A stretch of DNA of 64,000 bases from positions 64,001 through 128,000 of IMG/VR virus record IMGVR_UViG_3300045256_000058. One strand, written 5' to 3'. Both the position numbers and the translations under genes were made by a program. This document shows positions 1 through 61,164 of this stretch, piece after piece. This DNA is from a virus. The notes beneath the pieces were generated by a model. The model had not been told where the DNA came from. It worked only from the letters and a program-made list of their open reading frames with translations, and did not search any database. Numbering within the stretch: the first letter of the stretch is position 1; every line of letters begins with the position of its first letter.

Positions 1-735
1 ATCAAGCATGTTAGCTAATACATTTGATGTACCTTCAAGTCTTTGAGCTAATTCTCTATTTGTTCGTTGTTGAACAGTAGGTACATTGGTTCCAGCAGCA
101 CCATAGAAAGGTCTACCTTCACTTTTAGTTAGAAACTGTTGTGCTTGTTTTCTTTCTGACCGAGTAGGTAAACTTAACTTGCCTGCATTAATGTCTGCAA
201 GTTCTTGAGGAGTTAACTTACCTCTCATCCAACGCTCATATCTATCTACAGTATTTACTGCATCTTGTGTTTGACGCGCAGATGGGTCTGTCCATGTACC
301 AATAGCGTTTGTTAATATATTTGCATTACTAAACGTTTGAGGTACTCCATCTACAGTAAACTGCTCACCATTGGGCATCATAATAGGTACTTGGTCACGA
401 AGATTCAAAGCTTGCGCTCTTAACGCATTCTTTCGTCTTACTGCTACCTTTTGAGATGTTTTATATTCTTTTCTAGCTCTAGCACCTAAACGTTTTCTAG
501 TTTTTACACCTTCTGCATCGTTCTTTGATACTCTTTTCTCTCTTAAATATCCACGAAGACTACGTTCATCAGGAGGTGGATAAATATCTTCTCCAACTAA
601 TGACTTTTTCTCTTCTGGGTTAGGAGCCGCATAAGGTGGTGTACCTCTCCAGTTAGGGTCTTCTCGCCCGAATGTAGATAGCATACCAGACGTATATGCC
701 CATGCTACATATGAAGGCTTAACACATAATTTCAT
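1..735 (-). CDS. Partial hypothetical virion-region protein (runs off the window edge)
   Basis: ATG at 735-733 starts a frame (MKLCVKPSYVAWAYTSGMLSTFGREDP...) that I read without stops; it is not in the supplied track, consistent with truncation at the edge. Confidence 0.75.
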   Translation of the reverse strand, partial: MKLCVKPSYVAWAYTSGMLSTFGREDPNWRGTPPYAAPNPEEKKSLVGEDIYPPPDERSLRGYLREKRVSKNDAEGVKTRKRLGARARKEYKTSQKVAVRRKNALRAQALNLRDQVPIMMPNGEQFTVDGVPQTFSNANILTNAIGTWTDPSARQTQDAVNTVDRYERWMRGKLTPQELADINAGKLSLPTRSERKQAQQFLTKSEGRPFYGAAGTNVPTVQQRTNRELAQRLEGTSNVLANMLD

Positions 736-14235: not shown

Positions 14236-15810
14236 TTAATCAGCTAATACATCTTTACCGTATTTTTGTAGTAGATAACTATTCTGTGAGTTAGATGTAT
14301 TACCCCTTACTGCTCGGTCAATTAAATCTAAATCAGTAGCATCACTTATTTGTTTTCGTCTATCACCAAGCTTTAGAATATTATCGGCTGCCATTTGTTG
14401 AGTACTAAATCCTTTACGTGCTTTACGTCCTTTCCAATATCCTTCATCAAAAGGTCTAGCTGCTTTAGATTGTTGGTAATCATCTTTAATTATCTTTCTA
14501 CCTTCAAGACCAGTTACCGTATCTTCAAGTATCAAATTGTTTTTATTATATGGTGAATGTATTGATTCTCTAAAGCCCTCGATACTCTGTCTACGACTTT
14601 GACCCTTTAAGTTTTGTAATCTAGGTCTTGTTGATATGAATTCATAATAATCAGACATCTTTGGTTGTTGAAGTGGTTCAACCATATCATGTAACGAGTG
14701 ATGTTGTAGTCCAATATTTGTAGTATCTAAGTCACGTCTTACATTTGCTTGCAACTTACTTCTTTTTAACCAATTTATAGCCGAATCCTTGAGTGCTGGT
14801 AGCCATTCTTGAGTACTAATAATTCCTCTTCGTCTAGCAAAGTTAGCAGTATCAGACATATAGCTAAATAATCCCCCTCTCATCTTTATATTGAAAGGTG
14901 TACGACTATACTTTCTAGCTAACTCGGTAATACGGTCTTTGAATCTGCCTCTTTCAGAGTATAACTCATTACCTTCTGCAATACTATCTAATAATGGATT
15001 TACCATATGTTCAGGTATAGGACGAATACTTAACTCATCACTAATTACATCTGGTTCACTATGTTCTGCAATTTGAGACAGTATATTTTTTGCTGATTGT
15101 TTATGTGCGGTAATTTCAGGGGCTATACCTTTTAATCTTCTTTGCCAATACTTGTTACCTGTTACATCAAAATGTTGAGTAGGTACAGTTTTATACTTAG
15201 GAGGAGTCAATGGAGCATCTATATTACTTAGGTCAATAATATCTAAAGGCTGTAGCTCTTGTCTTGTTCCATGAGTAGGTAAGACTAAGTTCGGTGCAAT
15301 GGGTCTACCTTTATCTATATCTTCACCTAGAGTAGAAAAGTTAGCAGTTTTAGACATATAACTATATGAAAATTTGTTTAACATAACTTTAGACATAGGA
15401 TAACTACCTGGAGCTAATCCATTCTTTTTCTCTACACTATATTTGCCTAAACCTAGTAACGATTGATAGGCTTGTTGAGCAATGGGGTCAGTATTATGTG
15501 CCGCCATTGTATCTCCAACTACACCTGTTTGAACAGATTTAGGTAAAGGTAATCCTTGTAGTATGCCATCCTCTAAATATCGAGCAGCAGCTTCACCTTC
15601 ATTAGATAGAGAGATAGGGTTTTGGCGGCTTAATGAAATCGGGGCACTATGAGAGTAGTCATGAAATGAAGTCTTAAATAAAGGCTTGCCACTACGGTTA
15701 AGAGATGCTTCATTCTCAGCAGTAAACCATCTTTTCTTATCTTTATTGATTTGTATTAGTTTATTTCTAACTTCGGGAGCTAAGTCTCGAATACGAGGCA
15801 TTATAGGCAT
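14236..15810 (-). CDS. Multi-module putative internal virion protein (two SYMSxTANF motifs)
   Basis: FSYSYMSKTANF and FSYMSDTANF divide the protein into three segments. Confidence 0.5.
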   Translation of the reverse strand: MPIMPRIRDLAPEVRNKLIQINKDKKRWFTAENEASLNRSGKPLFKTSFHDYSHSAPISLSRQNPISLSNEGEAAARYLEDGILQGLPLPKSVQTGVVGDTMAAHNTDPIAQQAYQSLLGLGKYSVEKKNGLAPGSYPMSKVMLNKFSYSYMSKTANFSTLGEDIDKGRPIAPNLVLPTHGTRQELQPLDIIDLSNIDAPLTPPKYKTVPTQHFDVTGNKYWQRRLKGIAPEITAHKQSAKNILSQIAEHSEPDVISDELSIRPIPEHMVNPLLDSIAEGNELYSERGRFKDRITELARKYSRTPFNIKMRGGLFSYMSDTANFARRRGIISTQEWLPALKDSAINWLKRSKLQANVRRDLDTTNIGLQHHSLHDMVEPLQQPKMSDYYEFISTRPRLQNLKGQSRRQSIEGFRESIHSPYNKNNLILEDTVTGLEGRKIIKDDYQQSKAARPFDEGYWKGRKARKGFSTQQMAADNILKLGDRRKQISDATDLDLIDRAVRGNTSNSQNSYLLQKYGKDVLAD

Positions 15811-16947: not shown

Positions 16948-18645
16948 CTACCACTCTAGAGTTCTTAAATCATCTGCATGAGGAAAGTCACTAAAGATTT
17001 CAATACTGTTATGGTCTAATTTATCAATAGTATTTGTATTGATACCCATTTCTTTGAATCTAGCCTTAGTCCAATCATCTTCAGCTATTTTTATTTTAGC
17101 TCCTTTAGTAATGAAACCTACTGACTCATTTCCAAATTCAGCAAGATACTGAACACCATATGCTATACAATCTACGATGTCATCATGAGAACCAATAGGG
17201 AATGACTTAAGTTCAGCTTTAATTGCTGCGGGGTCATATGTAGTTTCAAGCTTTAAGTCTGTTTGAAAAGGATTATAGATAACTATCTTCTTATCTCTGA
17301 AGTAGGTAAGGATGGAACCAAGTCTTTGTTCCTTACTACCACCAAATTTACGTGGGTCAAAAGCATAGATATTGTTTATCTCTCTTTCTAATAGAGACAT
17401 TGCAGCATGACCATTTGCTTTAGCTTCAATACCGATACGACTCTTTGGATACTTCTTCTTTAATTTTCTAATTGCATCTAATTGCTCAGGAATACTACAT
17501 TTGTTTCGATACATATCTACAATGTAGTACTTGTCATCCATCTTACATAGAACTAATCCAACTGTATATGAAGAAGTAGGAGATTCATTAAAGCTTAAAT
17601 CCCATACAGTCATCATCGTACTGTAGTTAATAGGTCTAGCATCTGTTTCTATAAGCCATTCTTCTTTGATTAAGTTACCGTCACCAGTTGCAGTAGGGTC
17701 TTGTTGATAACGAGTGTTATAAATAATTGGATTCTTTGCTTGCGCTGATAGAAAACTGTCAGGTAAACGATGAGGGTCTAGTAATTCGTTACGTACTTTA
17801 CGAATATCATTAAACTTAATCGGACTAACAAATGTTTTCTCAGGTATATATTTAGCAGGAAGACTTAATAGGAACCAACCCTGGTCGCCATAGGTTTCCA
17901 TAATGTAACCAGTAATATCGTTTTCTGCAAGTCTTTGCATTACAAGAATAATTACATCATTGTTTACATCATTTGAACGGTTTAAGAATGTCTGAGTAAA
18001 CCAATCATTAACTCCTTTAATCATGTTTGGATTATTTGATTCTTCAGAGTCAAGTATGTCATCAAGTATTGCAACTGTGTATCCAGTTCCTAGTACTTTC
18101 GATGTAGGAGAACAACCAAGAATATATCCATTCATATCATTATCGATACGCTTCTTGGTATTACTATCTGTAGCTAATGAGTATCTGAAGTAATCTTCAT
18201 TTTTAGGGTCACACCATCTGTCTTTGTAAAGAGGATGCTCAAGAATACGTCTACCATAAATAATGTTCTGCATGAATAGACGTTCAGAGTGAGAAGCTAA
18301 CCAGAATTTCTCTTGAGGATGATTTATCCACCACCATACAGGAGCAGTAATAGAAGCAGTAGTTGATTTACTACTACGTGGAGGAATATTAATGATTAGT
18401 CTTCGTATGTTTCTATTGAGTGCAGCTTGTATATGTTCGCATAAGCATTCAATGTGCCAGTTATTTACAAGAGGTTGAGGGTCAAAGGTATTCCAAAAAT
18501 TAATGAAGAATTGATATAGACTTCTTTCTGATTTTTCATACATTTCTTCTTGAAGTAACTCTTCAAGCATAAAGAGTTCTTCATCAAACTTCTCATCATA
18601 AAAGCCAGGGTCATCAGGTGTAAGTATTTTCTTAGGCATAGTCAA
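16948..18645 (-). CDS. terL: Terminase large subunit
   Basis: Walker A IPPRSSKST, ILDD, coupling motif VMQR, YQQDP, nuclease WDLS and HDDIVD. Confidence 0.93.
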   Translation of the reverse strand: MTMPKKILTPDDPGFYDEKFDEELFMLEELLQEEMYEKSERSLYQFFINFWNTFDPQPLVNNWHIECLCEHIQAALNRNIRRLIINIPPRSSKSTTASITAPVWWWINHPQEKFWLASHSERLFMQNIIYGRRILEHPLYKDRWCDPKNEDYFRYSLATDSNTKKRIDNDMNGYILGCSPTSKVLGTGYTVAILDDILDSEESNNPNMIKGVNDWFTQTFLNRSNDVNNDVIILVMQRLAENDITGYIMETYGDQGWFLLSLPAKYIPEKTFVSPIKFNDIRKVRNELLDPHRLPDSFLSAQAKNPIIYNTRYQQDPTATGDGNLIKEEWLIETDARPINYSTMMTVWDLSFNESPTSSYTVGLVLCKMDDKYYIVDMYRNKCSIPEQLDAIRKLKKKYPKSRIGIEAKANGHAAMSLLEREINNIYAFDPRKFGGSKEQRLGSILTYFRDKKIVIYNPFQTDLKLETTYDPAAIKAELKSFPIGSHDDIVDCIAYGVQYLAEFGNESVGFITKGAKIKIAEDDWTKARFKEMGINTNTIDKLDHNSIEIFSDFPHADDLRTLEW

Positions 18646-25778: not shown

Positions 25779-28700
25779 ATGTCTCTTTGGCTTGTTGCTC
25801 CTACTTCTCTAAATGGAATCTTTGCTCACAAGCAATCCGTTTGGAAGGAAGACATCTACGAAATTGTAGAAGGAACAATAGAGGATGATGTTACTTTTCT
25901 ATTGTTCATGGATGGTAAGCCCTATTGTGTGGGTACTGACCTTGATGAATTAAAAGACTATGCTCTAAACGGCTAGTCTAATTAGTCGAGTAATAGAGAT
26001 TTATAACCTCTATCACTACTATAAGTAATCAATACAGGATGCTGGTTGTAGCTACAAGATTTCGTATGCTCCTAGCTCCTAATTTGTGTTGACTGTAGTG
26101 TGTTAGTTATGTTCTCTGTTGCTCTCTTCTGTATGACTGTTCACCTTATCTAGTCATGCTAGGAGGGGTAATGACTTGTGATGCCTGCTCGTAGTCCACC
26201 TTATTTTCTAACCATCATGGTTGTTCAATTTTACAACGGACACAAAAACATTCATCTTAATGTTGAACTGGATAGGCTGCATCCTGACTGTAATGTAAGA
26301 GCTATTGGAAGAGTGGGTAGAGATAAGTATTCTGAGCTTCCTACTTTTGAATCCGATAATTTTACTAGCTGTCTGGTAAAAGCTTCTCAATGGTGTGCAT
26401 TGAATGGATTCTTTCCGGTAGAAAACGGCAAAGTAGTTGAATACGTCTAGCTAAGGAGAAACATGGAAGGTAAACCCATCGAACTAAATATCTCAAATGA
26501 GTTTCCTGCTAACGGGGAAATTGTTATTCGAGTTCGATACGTTGCTAAAGATGCAAGACGAAAAGCAATGTTGTCTGTGTACGTTAGTGAGAACTGGTTA
26601 GCTGAGTGGGGATTGCATTCTACCGCTCGTTTCATGAATCAACGGCTCCAAAAAGATTGGGGTAATCCTCCTCTAGAGGTAGAAGCCTCCAATAAAGGCT
26701 ATCGAGTAGCTAGGCAAGCTGTGTTTGGTGATAAAGATAACTCTCCTTGGTCACACATTCAAATTGCGGCTTTTAGAGAGATGGTAGATATACTCTCTGA
26801 GTTTCAAGCTCATACTGCCTATCTAGATGCCCTTCGCAGTTCGGTTCCTGATGAAATGTTCTTTACTCTGGTGAAGTAATGCGTGTAATCGGTCAAGAAT
26901 CAAATTCAGCTTTTCAACAAGAAGCTGAACCACTATTAGCGGCAAACGGGATTTTAATTGTCCCTACTGTGTTTGATATGTCTAGCACTGGGTCTAAAGG
27001 TGTAGCAATTCGAGTCTACATTACGAATCACAGTCTGGATATAATTAGTCAACGTCAGAGTCTTTCTGAGCCTCCCATTTTGCCTTTACTTGGTTATGTG
27101 TCTTCTAGCTGGGGTGAAGCATCTCATGTATTTCCAGAGAGTAGAAACATTGCTTTCGAGAAGGATTTTGCTCCTGATGTTCCTGGTCATTTCATTGACC
27201 GTTGGATAAAGAATTTCTCTACTCAAGTCTTAGAAGAGTGGAGTTTCATTCTTTCTCATGTGCAAAAGAACACATCGGTTACGGTCACTCCTTCTGAGTT
27301 CCAAAATGGATTCTTTGGGATTACCTCTGCTTAGTTCGTTCATTACGTCCACATCATCAAGGTACAAAATTATGACTTCTGCTACACTTGTACGTCCTGC
27401 CTATACTCCTGTTCTCAAAGCCGACTTAGAACAAGGGGAAGAAAAGATTTCCAAGCTCGTTGATAAGTGGAAAGCTCTAAACCCCGGCAAAAGTGTGAAT
27501 CTCCGAATTACCTTTGCAATGTTTAACTCTGCTGAGAGCCTTACTCAAAAGTATGAGGCTGCAAAAACTCGGCTTCAACATTGGTATCAGGATGCAATCA
27601 TTACTGAGCGTCAAATGAAAGAAGCGCTATCTGAAATCGGTAAACTGTATCGAACATTCATCGGTATCTCTGCTAACTACGCAAATAAGCGTCAGTACAA
27701 CGGCAAAACCGAAAACATTGTTTGGATGGAATTCTAGTTTTTGTGTGGGTTACTTCTCCTTACCCTAATGGGGTTGCTCTTAGCGAGTGACCCCTTTTTT
27801 CTTAAGAGAAAGTTCCTTTTTTCATGCAAACCTTTACCTTTTTCTACCATCATGGCAAGCACTGGAATTACTGACCTTGAAACCCTTCATTCTTTGAAAG
27901 AGGAGTATTTTCCTCACGACACCCCTACTCTTCCTGATTCCGTTATCTATGCGGAAGATGCTGAACTGCTAATGCGTCTTTCAACACACGACCCTGTGCA
28001 TGGTTATCGGATTGTAAATGAATGGAAGCCCGTAGCAGCAGATGAAACCTACTGTCATGTGCAGGAAGTGAATTTCAAGATGTTCACTGTAACCCCTCGC
28101 TTAGATACTTCTGACCGTGCTGCAAGCCACTATCTGACTCCACAAGAGCGGGATATGTTGTTCCGTACTTGGTTATATCGTGGTTTTTCTCCTGCTGTGT
28201 CCATTCATCCGTATCTTCAGCCTGCACAGGATATTCTGTAATGTCAGAATCAATACCATCTCACTCTATGAAATATCTCCCTCTTTTTCTGGTGTTTTTA
28301 ACATCTGTAACCATTAGCACGTTCGAGCTATTGGCTATGGGTATTTCAGGATGGCTACTATATGCTCTCCCATTATGGAAAGCCGCAATTGCAGTAGCTC
28401 TAGGGTTGTTATCAACCTACGTCATGATTGATGCTTTCTCCAAGCTTCAGATTCAGCTCAACAAACACATTACTCGGAAATTACAGAATGATTCTTGACT
28501 TCATTGCTGTTGGGTTGGTGGGGATGGTCTTACGTCCCCTATTTGACCGTTATGTAGTCAATCCTATTGCTGCATGGATTACGATTTGTCAAATGAATGA
28601 TTGTGGAGACTAAATGCACTATCACGTTCTTGAGTCTGAAGGTAAGTTCATTGCACACCCTATGATTCGTGTAATTCACGGTGTGCTGACTTCTGATATT

Positions 28701-38630: not shown

Positions 38631-41600
38631 AGAAACGAGAGGACGCTCCTGCTGCTCACGCCCCAGTTGCATCAGATGAAGCGCTTTACAACAAGGATGA
38701 CCCCCGACATGAGGAAGCTGTGCAAATGTATAATCACATCGCTTCTCAAGCTGAACCAGATGAAGTGTTTATGTACACACTTCTTGAACCAGTAGAAGGT
38801 GCTGTTGATATTTCTACATCAAAACAGAAATGAAACGAAGTCATTCACGACATTCGTATCCAATAGGTAAGCACATTCCAATTTCGGCAGTTCGTCCTGC
38901 TTCAAAACTATCTTGCCGATATGAAAGATTGCTCCCTCAATTTCGGCACTCTACGCAAGAGCAACGTAGAGCCATCAAAAGAATGCACACTCGAAAAAAC
39001 AGATACACCCTTCGTCATGAAACAACAAGCTACGAACCCGCTGATTGGTAAGCGATTTAAGTTCAATCACAACGGAGTGACGGAAACTGCTGAGATTTTT
39101 CAGCATAATATTCGTCCTCAAGGTAATACTTACGGAGTAATCATTCTTCGTGACCCTGATTTACCTCTTTCTACCTCTAACTCCAAATGGTTTTTCTCGA
39201 TTCCAGAAGATAGAGCGCAAGAGATTGTAAGTCGATTAGTCGTCCTATCGCTATCGCCAAATCAACCTTCTAAAAAGAAAAAGAAAGTCATTACTGTAGG
39301 TAGTAGAAAGTGAGCTATATCTATCTTGCAGGTCAACAGGATACTCTCACATTTGCTCCAAACGTATTCTATGCCTCCTGTGATGAGCAGGAAGTAATGA
39401 GTAGGGCAAGAGAGTACCTTGATTCTTTACCTTCTGGCAGCAGAGTGGTAGTTCATCGTATTGAACTGAACACTCAAAATCCCCAAAAAGCAATGATTTT
39501 TCAAGGGTTAAAGTAATGAAACGTGGTAAAAAGATTGAAGCTGCGTTACAAAGACGCAAAAAAGCTTGGCAATTAATGCAAACTGATGCCTCTTGGCGTG
39601 GGGATGCGTTTCGCAAACACGGTATTGAAGGCTTTCGTGAGCCTGGTTCTCGTAAATTTCGCGGTTAAGTAAATCTATTGTTGTTGTTGAGGTCAAAATA
39701 TGTTACGCACTGACAATTATCGAGTTAAGTTTCATCACGTTGAATTTGCCAAACGTGATAAAAATGTTCCGGGTGAATATCGTGCAAAGCGTGGAACAAT
39801 TGCAAAAATCTATCCTGCTCCTGCTCCTGGGGTTCAATTAGGTGAGCCTATCGTAGTAGGTTGGGCAGCTTGTTCACCCAAAGAAAAAACCTTCAATAAG
39901 GCAATCGGTCGATTTCTATCACTCTTTCGTGCATTACAAATTCACGGTTTTGATAGAGCCGCAAAGAAGGAAATCATGAATGCTTTCTGGGAAACCACAC
40001 CTCCTTCAAAAGTCTTTAACGATTCTGGTCTGTCCGAGTTCGACTATTAACTCTCACTGCAAACACTAAATTTACCGGAGATTACTATGCCACTCAATTT
40101 GAAAATGTTCAAGCCTGTTCTCGGTGTCAAAAAAGTAACGAAAGAAGCAGGTGTTCTACCTGAAACTCTTCTTACTGTTGAAGAGGCTGAGAAACTTGCT
40201 GAAGGAAATGCGTTTGTTCGAGCTTTTCTGGATGACGATGATGTAGATGAAGCCAGCGTAATGTCCATCGCCACTGGTTTCAGCTACCGATTCAGCAAAA
40301 AATTCACACCTGAATTTAAGGCAAAACACGCCCATGCAATGCTCGATGAACTTCTAAGTCGCATGGAGAAAGAAAGCATGGGTATGAGTCAAGCGCTGGA
40401 TGCTGTTCAAGATATTGGCGAAGGATTCCGATTCAAGAGCGAATGAGGTAAACTTATGTTACGCGATTTAGGACTGATGGCTATTTTCTTCCTTCTAGGA
40501 TGGAAAGCTGGCGACCAAATTGTTGAAAAAATGACTGGCTTTGCTAAGTCTGTTTCTGACGAAATCAAAAAACAACAAGATTCGTAGGACTAACCGATGA
40601 AACCGATTCGAGTTCATGTCAATATCACCAATGAAGACATTAGAACAGGTGAGATTGCTCATGCTGGTAAGTGTCCGTTAGCTTATGCTTCTGCAAGGGC
40701 ATTGGCTGAGAATGAAGAGATTCCCGCTTGTGAAGTTCGAGTAATTGAATCACTTTATTTCTACTATGATTTGGAAACAAAAAGCAAGTGGATTAAGGTG
40801 GCTGAGTTACCCCAGCAAGTAAAAGAATGGGTATCTCGATTTGATAGCAAAAAGCAAGTTGAACCGATTGCGTTTGACATCGATGTTTACTTGCCTACTC
40901 AGAATGAATTGGATTCCAAAACGGAATTCATTTATGACCGAAAGTTGAACTAATCTATGAACGTATTACCTCTCTCAGAACACAATATACAGTTACTTAG
41001 CCAGTTTTATGACTATTGGGTAGCTGTTGAAGAAGTAATTTCACATAATGCTTCTCTTTACATTAAGTTAAGAGATGATATTGTGTCTGACCTTCCTAAA
41101 CCTCTGAGAGGGGTAGTTCACGTTCTTAACGGGACATAAAGTTATGAAAGTTTATACATATAATGAACGCTTTTTTAACGAGTTGGAAAATGTAGACGAT
41201 AACGTTGTTGAATCACGACTCGTTCCTTTTGGTACGCTTTCGGTTGGAACTAAATTTATACTTCCTAATACAAAAACTAAAAAGTATCGTGGTAATACTC
41301 ATTCAATAGATATTAGAACTACTGAGCCAATAGAAACAGTAACAACTGTGTCATCGGTTTACGGAGCAATAAATACTGCTATTAAATATAAATATGAAAC
41401 AAAAACTAAGTTTCAACCTTATATTTATGTAAAGATTTCTCCAAGAAAAAGACCGAATTACGGCTTTGAGTATAACGCTAAGATAGATAGACACTCTTAC
41501 AATCGAGAATATCTCTCAGGTTTTATTTCTGACGATACTTTAGTTCTACCACTTGACAAGAGGGAATGAAATGTTTAGTATTAGGTTAGGTGATTTCAGG

Positions 41601-50144: not shown

Positions 50145-50173
50145 TTGACATAGAAAACATTCTCCTCTATACT
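50145..50173 (+). promoter_or_regulatory. Sigma70-type promoter
   Basis: TTGACA-17 bp-TATACT. Confidence 0.75.
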
Positions 50174-51223
50174 AAGACTATAGGTACAGTACTTGGAGTC
50201 CTAGTGATGAAAAAAAGTGAATTCAAATGTCAGAATGACCTATGGTGGTATAAACCTCCCGTCAGAAGAAAGATGAAAGCTAACGCTCACAAGAGACTAC
50301 GAAGAAAAACAAGCTCAATGCTTAGTCAAAACATTAAGTATAAAGAGCTTGAACGATTTGAGCCTGTAATTTTAGCTACTCGCTAGTAGCCCTGCGGAGG
50401 TCGAAATGGAAAACGGAATTGAGTATTTAGAATCTATTCCGGGATATGAAGGATTAAAAATACCTAGATGGATAGAACACTTTGATGTTTCTAACCTTGA
50501 CTGGGTTACAGACATTTTTCTTCTCGGAATGGAAGAATTAGCAGAGAATGATGAGTACGTGGATTTATTTGATTGGCTTGGTTCAAAAATATTTCCGTAT
50601 GTTGAAGAAGAGTCTCATGTTCTGGAAATTGCTTGGGGATTCGGAGTACTAAGCTCTGTAGATGCTTCTAAGATGTACTATCAAATGCTAGATGGGGAAT
50701 TAAGTGATGGAGAATGAAGAAGATTCTAAACCTCTTGTGTTGGAGGATGTATTAGAAATAATCGTAAACCATATTGATACGTTAGAAAATTTTAAGAGTA
50801 AAGCTTTAGCTGCTGAAATTGAAGATAATGTTAATATCTGGAGTCAAGTTTACGATTTAGGTTTTCGTCTATATCGTATTGAGATTTCCCCAAGACTTAG
50901 GGCATTAGGTATCAGATTTGATTGGTATGACCCTGATACGACAGAGAAAGAGGATATTCTTGCTCTTATTAATGCACTCTCTGAGTTGAAATCAAAACTA
51001 AAGAGGTTAGTATGAGTACGTTACTTGTTCATACAGATACCGACTCTGATATGAAACTTCTAAAAAGAGTTTTAGATTCATCACATTTTCTAGAATTACT
51101 TCAAATCTATACGGATGAAGCTTATAGTAATTCAGGTGATGTAAACCTTGAGTTCGGTAGTGAAGGTAAATACGATGCACTTCACTTTTATGTTTCTCGA
51201 AAGTTAACAGAGGAAGATTTATA

Positions 51224-51880: not shown

Positions 51881-52165
51881 ATGTTACTCGATTATCCTGA
51901 AGATGACAAAAACAAAGATGTCATTCCTGAGTATGTAGAAGATACTACACCAGCAGCTTTAACTCTCGAACAACAATTTCATTACACTACATTCTGTTCG
52001 ACTGTAGATAAGATGAGTCGAGAGCAAGCAATTGATATGCTAAAACAAGTCCATAAGCAAATGCTTCATAAAGAGAACTTATATAAGCATTTTATTAAGT
52101 TCAATTGGGGACTTGGTGAAAACTCATTCAAACCTTCTCTTGGTGATGCCAATGAAACCACTTAG
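51881..52165 (+). CDS. nblA: Phycobilisome degradation protein NblA
   Basis: LTLEQQF...VDKMSREQAIDML....QML.KEN.YK matches the NblA pattern. Confidence 0.88.
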   Translation: MLLDYPEDDKNKDVIPEYVEDTTPAALTLEQQFHYTTFCSTVDKMSREQAIDMLKQVHKQMLHKENLYKHFIKFNWGLGENSFKPSLGDANETT

Positions 52166-52772: not shown

Positions 52773-52832
52773 TCGATTGGTTCATAGTTTACTCCTGTAG
52801 ACAGGGCTTTCGTAATTGGAAGCCCATTTTTT

Positions 52833-52924
52833 GCCCCTGTAGCTCAATGGTAGAGCGGGAAGCTTATATCTTCCGTATGCACCCGATTAGTGCGCGGTTG
52901 GCGGTTCGAGTCCGTCCAGGGGTA
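52833..52924 (+). tRNA. tRNA-Ile(TAT) with long variable arm
   Basis: Acceptor GCCCCTG/CAGGGGT, stem GGAAG/CTTCC, loop CTTATAT, 25-nt variable region. Confidence 0.85.
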
Positions 52925-53800
52925 TCTCTAACTACGAGGTAGTAGTATGGACATAATGGAATTTATTGTCGAAACAATTCGGCAAGATATGAATGATATT
53001 TTAAGTGAAAGACCTACTTACGGTGATACGGAAATAGATGTAGCACATTTAAGAGGTAAGCAAGCTGTAGCCGAAGACATTCTAGAGTTTATTAGAAAGT
53101 ATGTCCCTAACTCAAGTATTAGCTGAACTAGGTTTCAAGTACGAAAATATACTTGCAGATAAATTCAGTGATTATATTAGGTGTGTGGAAGAATTTAGAT
53201 TTGCAGAGGCACTTAGCCTTTTATTTGAGGTCATAAAAAATGAAGCTAAATTACGGTGAAGTTTGTTATAAACAGACTAATTATAATGATTTACAGAATT
53301 TTCTATCTTTTCACATTGGTACTAATGTAGAAATAATGTGGAGAGGAAATGATACCGATGAAACTTACACAGTAGAAAAAGATAATCAGTTTTGGGATGA
53401 GGAAGAGTACAAAGAACTTCTAGCTAGAGAACGTATTCCAGCTAAGAGTTATGGAACGCTAACCATTCCTGAATCGGTTAACTATGAAGAATATGAAGTA
53501 GGTACTCTTCTTGAAGGTCTATGTAGAGAAGGAAAATTAGAAGAAGGTAGTTATTTAGTTACTGTAAGTTGGTAGGAGAGTACATAATGGGAATTGTTAC
53601 ACATGGATTGGCTCAAATTGAGTTTGAAACTTATGCTTCTCAATTTGACCGTAGATTTGATAAGCTTATTGACCGCATTATTGAAGACTTAGTAAACAAT
53701 GGTATTCCTTTTGCTGATAAAGTTACAATGCGGTCTGTTGCTTTAAGTCAAAAAGCAAGAAAAGAAAAAGACTATTTGAACACATTACATAGAGCGAGAT

Positions 53801-55927: not shown

Positions 55928-55956
55928 TTGACATTAGCTATAAGTTTCGCTAATAT
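55928..55956 (+). promoter_or_regulatory. Sigma70-type promoter of the CAGCAA-RNA / Ro60-like operon
   Basis: TTGACA-17 bp-TAATAT; predicted start falls at the 5' end of element 2. Confidence 0.75.
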
Positions 55957-55962
55957 GATATA

Positions 55963-56025
55963 AGAGGAATTCAGCAATCTACTTATCCCTTTGATTCATA
56001 CTCAAAAACGGAAAAAAATTCCTCT
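55963..56025 (+). ncRNA. CAGCAA stem-loop element 2
   Basis: AGAGGAATT/AATTCCTCT stem, CAGCAA, inner TTTGA/TCAAA stem with loop TTCATAC. Confidence 0.75.
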
Positions 56026-56038
56026 GCTTAAAGATTTT

Positions 56039-56094
56039 GGGGATTCAGCAACTCACTGTATTATTTCGCCAAACTTGGAATAAAAACAATCCCC
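56039..56094 (+). ncRNA. CAGCAA stem-loop element 3
   Basis: GGGGATT/AATCCCC stem, CAGCAA, inner TTATTTC/GGAATAA stem. Confidence 0.7.
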
Positions 56095-56126
56095 TAGTTA
56101 ACCTTCATTGATTTTTGGAGTGTATT

Positions 56127-57701
56127 ATGGTCGTGTCAAAATTGAAGAATCTGAAATATTCACCAGCAGTTCCGTTTACTTACACGGAAAATGGTGCAAT
56201 TACATACAAAACAACTGGAAGTGCCGTACTTGACTTATTCTCCAGAGGCGCAGCAATGCGTATGGGAGGTCGGTCTTCTGAGCGTGATATTACGGGCATA
56301 TTTCGACCAGCGTTTCAAGAGAACGCAGCACTCGCTATGGCTACTCTTTTTTACATTCGAGATATTCCTCGTAAAGGAAAGGGTGGGCAAGGTGAACGTA
56401 ATTTCTTTCGTCTTGCATTTACTTGGGTAGCAAATAACTATCCTGAGCTTGCAAAAGAATTACTAAAGTTTATTCCTGAGTACGGAACTTGGAAGGACGT
56501 TCTCTATGCAACTAGAGGTACTCCGGTGTATGAAAATGCACTGAGTTTAATGGGTTATCAATTAGCTGTAGATGCTCTTGCATTGTCAGAAGGTAAAACA
56601 AATATCTCTCTAGCAGCTAAATGGAGTCCAAATGAATCATCAGGAAAACTATCTCAAAAGATGGCAGTTGAGCTTGCTACTCATTTAGGTCTTTCAATGA
56701 AAGGCTATCGCAACTTAACTAGCCCTCTGAGAAAGCATCTGAAGCTGGTAGAAACAGCTATGTCTTCTGGTAATTGGCATGAAATCGATTACGAAAAAGT
56801 GCCTTCAAGAGCTATGAAGATGTATCGTAAAGCATTTTATAAGAGAGATGAATCAAGATTCTCTGCTTATATTGCTGCTGCGGTAATGGGTGCAAAGAAA
56901 ATTAACTCTACTACTCTGTATCCATACGAAATCATTAAGGATTTAATCCCTTATGGTAGACCGATGGCTTACGGGTCATCTACGGATGAAAAAGCTCTGG
57001 AAGCAATGTGGAATGCTTTACCTAACTATCTAGAAGGTCAAGCTCTAAATGCTTTAGTTGTAGTGGATGTGTCCGGTTCAATGGCAGGCGACCCAATGTA
57101 TGTTTCGACATCATTAGGTCTATACGTCGCAGAACGTAACGAACACCCTCTATGGAAAAACCACTTCATTACCTTTTCTGCGGAGCCTAAGCTTCAAAAG
57201 ATTACGGGTAAGAGCTTTAAGGATAGAGTGTCATCATTGTTTAAGAATGCTGGTTACAACACAAATTTACAGGCTGTGTTTGACTTAATTCTTGACAAAG
57301 CAAAATCAGCCAAGCTATCTCAATCAGACTTGCCGGAAACAGTTTATATTGTTTCGGATATGGAATTCGACCAAATCGAAGATGGGTATGGCGGATATGG
57401 CTGGTACTCTTCGTCTTCTGCTGCATCTAAGAAAGCAAAGACTAATCTCTCTGCAATTAGAGCGAAGTTTAAGAAGGCAGGTTACGAAATGCCTAAGATT
57501 GTGTTCTGGAACGTAAGAGCAGCAAATATGCAATCTCCTGCAACCTTTAACGAGGATGGAGTTGCAATGTTCTCTGGACTGTCTCCAACTATCTTTCAAG
57601 CGGCATTGACTGGTAATTTTGACCCACTTTCAGCAATGCTGGAAACGATTGCGTCAGAAAGATACCGTCCAATTATCGATACAACTGTGTCGAGCTTGTA
57701 G
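56127..57701 (+). CDS. Ro60/TROVE-like RNA-binding protein (DUF2828 type) with C-terminal VWA
   Basis: TENGA, LDLF, FYIRD..GQGER, YGTWKD, AAKW, VPSRAM, LYPYE; MIDAS DVSGSM, NTNL and SDMEFD; VFWN. Confidence 0.85.
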   Translation: MVVSKLKNLKYSPAVPFTYTENGAITYKTTGSAVLDLFSRGAAMRMGGRSSERDITGIFRPAFQENAALAMATLFYIRDIPRKGKGGQGERNFFRLAFTWVANNYPELAKELLKFIPEYGTWKDVLYATRGTPVYENALSLMGYQLAVDALALSEGKTNISLAAKWSPNESSGKLSQKMAVELATHLGLSMKGYRNLTSPLRKHLKLVETAMSSGNWHEIDYEKVPSRAMKMYRKAFYKRDESRFSAYIAAAVMGAKKINSTTLYPYEIIKDLIPYGRPMAYGSSTDEKALEAMWNALPNYLEGQALNALVVVDVSGSMAGDPMYVSTSLGLYVAERNEHPLWKNHFITFSAEPKLQKITGKSFKDRVSSLFKNAGYNTNLQAVFDLILDKAKSAKLSQSDLPETVYIVSDMEFDQIEDGYGGYGWYSSSSAASKKAKTNLSAIRAKFKKAGYEMPKIVFWNVRAANMQSPATFNEDGVAMFSGLSPTIFQAALTGNFDPLSAMLETIASERYRPIIDTTVSSL

Positions 57702-57733
57702 AAAAAACTAGGAGGTGAAAGTCCTCCTCTCAT

Positions 57734-57855
57734 GCGGCGTTGGTGTAATGGTAGCATCTAACAGCAAAAACCCCTCTTAGTGTAGAGGTTCAGCAATTTA
57801 ATTAGCTTATTTTCTTTGAACGAAAAAGGAGAGGGTTCGAGTCCCTCACGCCGCT
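57734..57855 (+). ncRNA. tRNA-like RNA with a 51-nt insertion carrying two CAGCAA motifs (element 4)
   Basis: Perfect acceptor stem, D arm, anticodon arm (loop TTTGAAC) and T arm; insertion at 57759-57809. Confidence 0.8.
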
Positions 57856-59235: not shown

Positions 59236-59264
59236 TTGACAACTTCATTCTCAATTGCTAATAT
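59236..59264 (+). promoter_or_regulatory. Sigma70-type promoter with extended -10
   Basis: TTGACA-17 bp-TAATAT, with TG at -15/-14. Confidence 0.75.
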
Positions 59265-59270
59265 AGTAAT

Positions 59271-59341
59271 AAGGATGATTTAGTCATCTCCATTTTTGAC
59301 CTCCGCAACTGGCTCTTAGAATCGACCCTGAGAGCCTTTTT
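59271..59341 (+). ncRNA. Candidate trans-acting anti-RBS small RNA
   Basis: Promoter, 5' hairpin, unpaired CCATTTTTGACCTCCGCA seed, and terminator GGCTCTTAG/CTGAGAGCC followed by T5. Confidence 0.6.
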
Positions 59342-59412
59342 ACTTCAATGGTGTAGTGGTAGCACAGGAGATTCCAAACCTCTTAGCCTGGGTTCGATTC
59401 CTAGTTGTCGTG
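59342..59412 (+). tRNA. tRNA-Trp(CCA), degenerate acceptor stem
   Basis: Loop TTCCAAA; canonical D and T arms; two acceptor-stem mismatches. Confidence 0.7.
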
Positions 59413-59962
59413 TTTTTTTTAAGTTCGGATAATCAATATGAAACTTAAATTTTGGTTTCATTCTCTATTTTGTGGGATTACATTTCGAGTAGGTAAATAT
59501 ACTTTAGGAATGTTTGGAAGTAACAAAAGAGAATATGAAAGAGGCGGTAGTACAGATTTTACATTTGATAACGGTACTACTCGTTGGGAATTATATCTTT
59601 ACAATTACGGCGGTAAGCCTTGTTTAGATACGAACAGTATGCCTAGTTGGTATCACTAATGTCTAAAGAACAAAACAAAGAAGTAAAAACAACAACCCCT
59701 CCTGCTGCCCCTGTGCCCAATGTAACAGTGGTAACTGGTCAAGGACAATCTACAAACGAGGATGAAGGTTCAACTAGAACTGTATATTGGAGTTAAAAAT
59801 GGGTACAAGAGATATTCAGTTAGAAACACTAACTAAGTTGTGGCTTGAGAGAAAAAATGCGGCACTTAAATTACCGGAAAGTGAAGCAAAAATTACTCTA
59901 CTTAAGCTAATTGAAGAAGAAAGAGTTTATTTAGGTATTCCAGAAGAAGCCTAAACAATCTT

Positions 59963-60026
59963 GGAGGGAGTCAGCAATCTAATTATGGATTACAATGTGA
60001 TGTAAAAAACCAAACAAACTTCCTCC
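59963..60026 (+). ncRNA. CAGCAA stem-loop element 5
   Basis: GGAGGGAGT/ACTTCCTCC stem, CAGCAA, inner TTACA/TGTAA stem; 5 nt before tRNA-Gly. Confidence 0.7.
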
Positions 60027-60102: not shown

Positions 60103-60613
60103 TCGTGAGCCTCTTTCGATGACCTTACGGCAGGTAGAAAGATGTGCCATGAAAGATGGGTCGCCGTTTTTACATAGGTTATACTACTTATGTAAATACC
60201 CATACCAAATCACATTATGTCTGAAACTAGATTGAACTGGTTAAACACTAAAAAAGATTATATTCGTTACCTGTTTGCTCAAGCATTTGGTAATGCGGTA
60301 GCCGAAGTTGTAGCACAAGAGTTACGCTTCGGCTTTCGTATGGAAGACAGATATGAGGATGTAATTAAATCATGCTGGCAAATGGCAGAAACAGCTACAC
60401 AATTATTAGTTACGGAGGATGACGATGGAGAGTCTAGAGGAAAAGATATTTAACTATATTCGAGACAACCTTGACATTAGCCTGGAAAGAAGCTACGATA
60501 GTGATTATGGTAGTTATAATACAGGACTACATCTTACAGTCTTTCTAACAAATCCTAAGACTGGACAGCAAGAAAGAATTATTTCTGAATATGTAACTCT
60601 AGATTAAGAGTTT

Positions 60614-60686: not shown

Positions 60687-61164
60687 TATCGAAACCCTGG
60701 TCACAATCGAAATTCATAATGCCCTTGAATAGGAGAGGGAGATAAAGAATTACCAGATGCAGCGTTGTAGAGAGCCTCTTAAGAACAGGACGATACAACT
60801 CTTAGGTGGACGCATAGCTTATGCTGGTTTCGAGAGTATTATTACGGTGACAATTATGAGAGATGATAGTAAGTTACTTTTACAATACTTTCTTCGTCAT
60901 GGAGATGTAGTTGAGAAAGCATTGATTGATTCTGTGACAGAGGGTTCATCGTGGGATAATGAGCTGTCTGTAAATACTTGGTTATTGTCCACAATATTAA
61001 TTGATTATTTTTGGACAAGGTTTGTTAAGTTACTTGAGTCTATTCCCGATGCAGAGGATAGAGACTTATTTATTTCCATTGCAAAGTATGTAGTTGGGAG
61101 TAATTTGGGGTTCAAAGAAGTTTCAACTGAGTTTATTAACAGAAAGATAGAGCAGACTAAACAT

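Follow-up and report, generated by a model that had tools for sequence, protein, structure and literature searches.

A candidate trans-acting anti-RBS small RNA encoded directly upstream of tRNA-Trp in a cyanophage genome

Introduction

Does the short non-coding gap directly upstream of a phage tRNA-Trp gene encode a small RNA (sRNA), and could such an RNA act in trans on an mRNA of the same phage? To our knowledge, the phage small RNAs characterised to date come nearly all from temperate enterobacterial phages. The locus considered here lies in a 64,000-nt stretch of phage DNA (hereafter the window), which corresponds to bases 64001-128000 of a 146,347-bp contig found in hot-spring and microbial-mat metagenome runs. 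Coordinates below refer to the window unless they are marked as genome coordinates. An original prediction, made from the sequence letters of this locus, proposed an sRNA with a seed antisense to the ribosome-binding site (RBS) and start codon of ORF 50406, a phage gene 9 kb upstream. We analyzed this proposal with regard to the anatomy of the putative RNA, the rank of its pairing, its target, its relatives and its likeness to known systems.

The first 195 bases of the contig recur at its end (genome 1-195 and 146153-146347). This ~195-bp repeat is a sign of terminal redundancy or of a circular assembly, and on this basis the genome is probably complete. The window encodes a large terminase (TerL), nine tRNAs (ARAGORN, Rfam), a DUF2828/DUF7788 protein and the phycobilisome degradation protein NblA, which together identify the virus as a cyanophage; the presence of nblA also points to a cyanobacterium as the host. 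From ~23 kb onward, the genes of the window are in the majority on the + strand and are mostly orphans in Pfam and PHROGs. Inteins (with Intein_splicing, LAGLIDADG and Hint domains) are present in many terminase genes from the related phage lineage, whereas the TerL gene of this phage has none.

Results

A promoter-to-terminator unit in a non-coding gap

Models of promoter, fold and terminator give the region at 59271-59341 the appearance of a small RNA gene that runs from a promoter to a terminator (Table 1). The TTGACA-17-TAATAT promoter of the original prediction is present, and we found that it additionally carries a TG extension. It heads the list of promoter-like sites between 58 and 62 kb, tied at 10 of 12 consensus positions with a site at 60471, and shares its -10 context, GCTAATAT, with the promoter at 55928. 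In the whole genome, 15 sites on the + strand fit the strict pattern TTGAC[AT]-16..18-TAnnnT, and 7 of them fall in the ~12% of sequence that is intergenic (binomial estimate, about 1e-3); because of this enrichment, such sites look like real host-type promoters. Also, the succession of a promoter, CCTCC and a terminator within 160 nt occurs once in the genome, at this candidate unit.

Table 1. Positions of the features discussed in the text (window coordinates; energies in kcal/mol).
Feature	Position	Strand	Details
Sigma-70-type promoter, TTGACA-17-TAATAT with TG extension	59236..59264	+	10/12 consensus matches; predicted start ~59271
Candidate small RNA, about 71 nt	59271..59341	+	Fold -20.7, z = -3.3
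5' hairpin with UUA loop; two of its 7 bp are terminal G-U pairs	59273..59289	+	-5.8, weak
Open linker (putative seed), UCCAUUUUUGACCUCCGCAACU	59289..59310	+	59289-59307 predicted to pair with target; 59290-59310 outside the 5' hairpin
Hairpin of 9 bp (5 G-C pairs, 8-nt loop; 59311-59336) and U5 (59337-59341)	59311..59341	+	-14.9
tRNA-Trp (CCA)	59342..59412	+	ARAGORN; Rfam tRNA, 47.1 bits; abuts end of U-tract at 59341
Predicted target site, UGCGGAGGUCGAAAUGGA	50393..50410	+	SD (GGAGG) and AUG of ORF 50406, positions -13 to +5
ORF 50406, candidate target gene	50406..50717	+	103-aa acidic orphan protein; second cistron of early operon
Promoter of target operon, TTGACA-17-TATACT	50145..50173	+	
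Cis anti-SD stretch inside upstream ORF	50352..50367	+	Predicted weak local hairpin sequestering the 50406 SD
nblA, phycobilisome degradation protein	51881-52165	+	Pfam NblA, 9.9e-20; same gene string as ORF 50406
Secondary site GAGGTCAAAA ahead of ORF 39700	39689..39698	+	Perfect 10-nt match, -22.1
Start region of ORF 60425, weaker second candidate target	60403..60436	+	ddG -20.5; requires opening of the 5' hairpin
TerL	16948-18645	-	No intein

Folding placed both the proposed 5' hairpin and the unpaired linker, of 20-21 nt, where they had been expected. The 59271-59341 segment folds better than would be predicted from its composition, since only 1 of 200 dinucleotide-shuffled sequences folded as well, and the linker is predicted to be open (unpaired probability 0.65-0.99 in the ensemble of the small RNA). 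No ORF of at least 30 aa in the window's ORF list crosses the segment on the + strand, and a search of this strand against Rfam gave no match for the small RNA even at E values up to 10. The hairpin at 59311 with its U5 tract is the sole strong terminator-like site on the + strand between 58 and 62 kb outside the tRNA bodies. Thus, the unit has a predicted promoter of its own and a predicted defined 3' end within a non-coding gap, as would a trans-acting RBS-occluding sRNA. In these models, the weak spots of the unit are the U-tract, which has only 5 U, and the low stability of the 5' hairpin. We consider it likely that a discrete small RNA is made from this unit. A reading of the locus as an attenuator or riboswitch was rejected: the linker and hairpin-arm sequences that were inspected contain no alternative pairing between linker and terminator arm, and the frequency of the minimum free energy (MFE) fold of the segment in its ensemble is 0.35.

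Linkage to tRNA-Trp

The gap between the U-tract and tRNA-Trp is zero, which leaves the tRNA gene without room for a promoter of its own. For this reason, tRNA-Trp can be made only by transcription through the presumed terminator, either from the 59236 promoter or from farther upstream. The intrinsic terminator of the original prediction therefore stands as a structure, a hairpin followed by U5, and is to be amended in function: it must be leaky or serve as a 3' stability hairpin, and the sRNA would be part of an sRNA-tRNA transcript. The adjacency also offers two routes to one and the same 3' end of the sRNA, namely termination at U5 or cleavage by RNase P at 59342. The tRNA itself is followed by T8 (59413-59420) and its acceptor stem contains two non-standard pairs next to each other, U-C and U-U; it may be decaying, or its retention may be due mainly to a use as processing signal.

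Small structured elements also stand immediately ahead of other tRNAs in the vicinity, and the coupling of sRNAs to tRNAs seems to be habitual in this phage genome. Stem-loop elements that share TCAGCAATCTA (repeat D20) are located at 55960-56096 and 59960-60026, that is, in the leader of the DUF2828/DUF7788 gene (56127-57701) and directly 5' of tRNA-Gly, respectively. Just 3' of the DUF2828 gene, two pieces lie ~100 nt apart in the region 57732-57855, one resembling the 5' half of a tRNA (repeat D1) and the other a T-arm (repeat D6); no tRNA was called there by ARAGORN or Rfam, and the region may represent a YrlA-type tRNA-like RNA. Besides, tRNA-Ile(TAT) at 52832-52926 has a length of 95 nt, with an additional hairpin of ~20 nt in its variable region.

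Pairing with the start region of ORF 50406

The 18-bp duplex that had been proposed, with one G-U pair and one bulge at the RBS and ATG of ORF 50406, was recovered exactly between 59289-59307 and 50393-50410. It consists of 10 Watson-Crick pairs, 1 G-U pair, 3 A-U pairs, one bulged U and 4 further pairs, and has a predicted energy of -28.1 kcal/mol for the bare 19- and 18-mers and of -29.9 kcal/mol with the 22-nt linker. When the linker was slid over both strands of the whole genome, 50393-50410 was the top site except for the element's own antisense, and the runner-up reached -23.0. The same result was obtained with 261 crude gene starts (-30..+15), among which ORF 50406 was first at -29.9 and the second gene was at -22.2. 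The check set beforehand, namely whether the 50406 leader is an outlier among RBS regions, thus gave a clear answer in favor of the pairing. An energy of -29.9 was reached by 1 of 300 full shuffles of the linker, by none of 300 shuffles which kept CCTCC, and by 1 of 650 random native 22-mers. Inclusion of folding costs, by cofolding the full small RNA with the region -60..+40 of every gene, again ranked ORF 50406 first (ddG -24.0; mean over genes -6.5, sd 3.6), ahead of ORF 60425 (-20.5) and ORF 39700 (-17.3).

The complement of the linker region resembles the 50406 start region only across 18/19 nt, from the SD to +5, and the flanks are dissimilar. A BLAST comparison of all start regions with the genome yielded many matches of comparable identity score; since matches at this level are common, the case for the linker-50406 pair rests on its energy ranking and its location. 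This caution is answered by an all-against-all energy scan, which compared 26-nt windows at every genome site having an 8-mer complement to any start region. Apart from a terminal-repeat artefact, the linker-50406 pair was first in the genome (-36.6). The linker is therefore a predicted open seed which matches the SD and AUG of ORF 50406 above background, as in the class of sRNAs under consideration. Elsewhere, a 23-nt inverted match with one gap (-29.2 kcal/mol) was observed between the start of ORF 28488 (28468-28495) and genome positions 60917-60942, which are situated 3,083 to 3,058 bases before the start of the window, inside a minus-strand gene; this match is probably due to chance.

The target gene and its operon

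The end of ORF 50406 is overlapped by ORF 50707, and nblA follows 1.2 kb farther downstream in the gene string. The protein of ORF 50406 belongs to no family in Pfam or PHROGs, tblastn against phages found no homologue, the ESM Atlas gave nothing usable as a structural lead, and a collection of 5.8 billion proteins contained just the protein itself and a one-SNP variant. With regard to accessibility, the target site is predicted to be largely paired, with an unpaired probability of mostly 0.01-0.25 in the MFE structure and ensemble of -60..+40 of the gene, and the partner of its SD would be the cis anti-SD stretch (Table 1). Sequestration of an SD by an anti-SD inside the upstream ORF is a common arrangement for translational coupling. 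According to the predicted energies, the small RNA would compete for this SD by a much stronger duplex; since the models already have this SD sequestered in cis, how much the small RNA would add is uncertain.

Secondary sites and host sequences

A further pairing site noted originally lies ahead of ORF 39700. The perfect 10-nt match exists, but its energy of -22.1 kcal/mol is within the range of chance as given by the best-of-261 shuffle null (mean -19.3, sd 2.2), and the ddG of ORF 39700 is -17.3. Host mRNAs were also named originally as possible targets. In the corresponding searches, the exact complement of the 18-mer had 25 matches in GTDB (185,579 species genomes), scattered over phyla, and in 401 cyanobacterial genomes matches with up to 2 mismatches were about as frequent as those of a reversed-pattern control. 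One of the exact matches is in the DUF2267 gene of Anabaena sp. CCY 0017, whose RBS and ATG are perfectly complementary to the seed over 18 nt (-33.5 kcal/mol). A similar leader (-27.8 kcal/mol) is present in the nearest DUF2267 orthologue and not in the other orthologues; as the complement is not kept among them, this gene was rejected as a conserved host target.

Relatives

Neither partner of the pair, seed or target, was found in relatives by the phage, IMG/VR, metagenome and protein searches. Searching the phage collection with blastn matched the tRNA alone, and tblastn against phages with a protein of the structural region (14236-15807) gave no match. In IMG/VR, the DUF2828 protein led to nine loci with no other gene in common, TerL led to no match, and the exact 20-mer seed was absent. 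The same 20-mer had two matches in metagenomes, both of which lack the hairpins and for that reason are regarded as chance. TerL homologues at 52-70% identity exist. One long relative (126.5 kb, binned with a Chroococcidiopsis MAG) was examined and shares 57 of 261 proteins, nearly all outside the early region; the early region, tRNA-Trp and any comparable module are absent from it, as are both partners. Identical sequences were found in other assemblies of the phage: contigs from two other samples have the same small RNA and the same target site, and DNA contigs from one sample are identical to the window.

Discussion

Proposed mechanism

Taken together, the data describe a well-supported in silico candidate for a trans-acting anti-RBS small RNA, whose function we infer from its predicted pairing. 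In the proposed mechanism, host RNA polymerase would start at ~59271 from the strong extended -10 promoter, and the small RNA would be made early. The transcript would stop at the 9-bp hairpin and U5, or else read into tRNA-Trp and be cut by RNase P at 59342; either route would leave the same RNA of ~70 nt, guarded by its 5' and 3' hairpins. Its open linker of ~20 nt would then form 18 bp with the SD and start codon of ORF 50406, 9 kb upstream, and pairing at -13..+5 would block binding of the 30S subunit and hence initiation at this gene. Polar effects may include a lower expression of the overlapping ORF 50707 and destabilization of the early operon including nblA. That the phage encodes a trans-acting base-pairing small RNA which regulates ORF 50406 in this way is the reading we tentatively adopt, at somewhat less than an even chance.

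Alternative explanations

The unit may have a more mundane role, in which the promoter would serve tRNA-Trp and the genes downstream, the hairpin would end the upstream operon and/or shape the tRNA precursor, and the 70-nt piece would be a discarded 5' leader with a coincidental complementarity to the 50406 start region. The immediate start of tRNA-Trp after the U-tract and its dependence on the 59236 promoter are as expected from such a role, and so are the small structured elements ahead of other tRNAs in this region; the frequency of BLAST-level start-region matches of comparable length elsewhere in the genome and the absence of the RNA/target pair from the relatives searched also agree with coincidence. 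However, chance would have had to place the pair that ranks first by energy in the genome exactly in the open linker and on the transcribed strand, at an energy which the controls reached in about 0.2-0.3% of trials. Besides, a leader requires no anti-SD/anti-AUG stretch held single-stranded between two hairpins. We therefore regard a purely tRNA-related role as a serious but rather doubtful explanation.

Regulation of ORF 50406 by a dedicated RNA also has to be weighed against a broader anti-SD activity, in which the CCUCC linker would turn down many mRNAs with a strong SD, whether from the phage (50406, 60425, 39700, 73838 and others) or from the host, or would imitate a host RNA or act as a sponge for one. 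Several GGAGG-type start regions come next in the ranking, and the exact complement on the RBS and ATG of the Anabaena DUF2267 gene fits such an activity. Nevertheless, the secondary sites are inside the best-of-261 shuffle null, the Anabaena site is unconserved in orthologues, cyanobacterial matches do not exceed the reversed-pattern control, and the GGAGG core does not include 13 of the 18 target pairs, all of which makes a broad activity improbable. An even smaller probability is assigned to the linker being an inert leftover or inverted duplicate of a gene start with no present RNA function. Its reverse complement does resemble an RBS and ATG on the minus strand (GGAGG-N6-ATG followed by an 11-codon ORF, MEMTKSSLLLY and stop) and is identical to the 50406 start region at 17 of 18 positions. 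Yet the similarity ends precisely at the borders of the start region, and antisense regulators are known to arise by inverted duplication of their targets. The neighboring genes are all on the + strand and no promoter-like site is located upstream on the minus strand, where the only nearby site (59287-59260) lies within or after the mini-ORF; a reading as a minus-strand mini-ORF was rejected.

Comparison with known systems

It has been reported that Yfr1, a cyanobacterial sRNA of 54-69 nt, has two stem-loops and 16-20 unpaired nt between a 6-10-bp 5' stem-loop and a 6-9-bp G+C-rich hairpin with a U tail, and contains a CCUC-type pyrimidine-rich seed (PMC2190773). The candidate RNA has the same layout of hairpin, open stretch and terminator and a cyanobacterial host, and with about 71 nt it is marginally above the Yfr1 size range. 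The original prediction of a Yfr1-like layout with a different seed agrees with this published description (PMC2190773). Differences are that the candidate is encoded by a phage, is fused to a tRNA gene and has a seed that fits a phage start region; in addition, the ultraconserved undecanucleotide of Yfr1, ACUCCUCACAC, is absent from the window at up to 1 mismatch, and the phage linker has UUGACCUCCGCAAC instead. Because of the absence of the undecanucleotide and of any Rfam match (E up to 10), the small RNA is not a member of the Yfr1 family despite its layout.

The c4 RNA of phages P1 and P7 is matured by RNase P, and maturation by this enzyme is also proposed here. In function, c4 appears by analogy to be the closest known system to our candidate, as both c4 and the P4 CI RNA are phage RNAs that act over a phage RBS. 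c4 is phage-encoded and acts in trans on a phage mRNA, whose RBS it covers (PMC12197685), and the predicted 18-bp pairing at -13..+5 would have the classic geometry of RBS-occluding sRNAs of this kind (PMC12197685). In contrast to c4, which is cut from the operon that it controls (immI-type), belongs to an immunity region of temperate phages and has two short loop elements, the candidate has one continuous 18-bp seed, a separate promoter and a target 9 kb away with its own promoter at 50145. Membership in the c4 family was rejected, as no Rfam family matched and the target is on a separate transcript upstream. C-rich anti-SD sRNAs such as RsaE and RoxS use several short unpaired C-rich motifs against many targets and have no long scaffolds. 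They are like the candidate in that an unpaired C-rich motif faces a G-rich SD region, and differ from it in that the phage RNA has a single long seed which reaches well beyond the SD as far as the start codon of one gene. Small RNAs are also known from the tRNA region of phage T4, in which, according to a review, RNAC and RNAD have unknown roles and no trans-acting sRNA has been characterized (PMC3014915). These RNAs (species 1 and 2) are likened to the candidate by description and not by sequence, as small stable RNAs co-made among phage tRNA genes; they have no proposed target, whereas the candidate has a specific one.

Significance

Occlusion of an RBS is a textbook mechanism, and this candidate small RNA is an orphan instance of it. 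A larger interpretation would see here an RNA-only switch in a lytic-type cyanophage: a Yfr1-shaped sRNA released from a tRNA precursor would shut down the early host-takeover (nblA) operon, perhaps after having arisen as an inverted duplicate of the ribosome site in its target, and would represent a wider, undescribed class of tRNA-linked anti-RBS sRNAs in large phages. As a whole, this interpretation is unlikely, and we offer it as speculation. At a more modest level, the combination of cyanophage origin, a single specific target encoded by the phage itself and simple architecture makes this candidate a directly testable case of early phage genes being controlled by RNA. A job that small RNAs of phage tRNA clusters may have is suggested by it as well, namely to be released by tRNA processing and then to silence a ribosome site.
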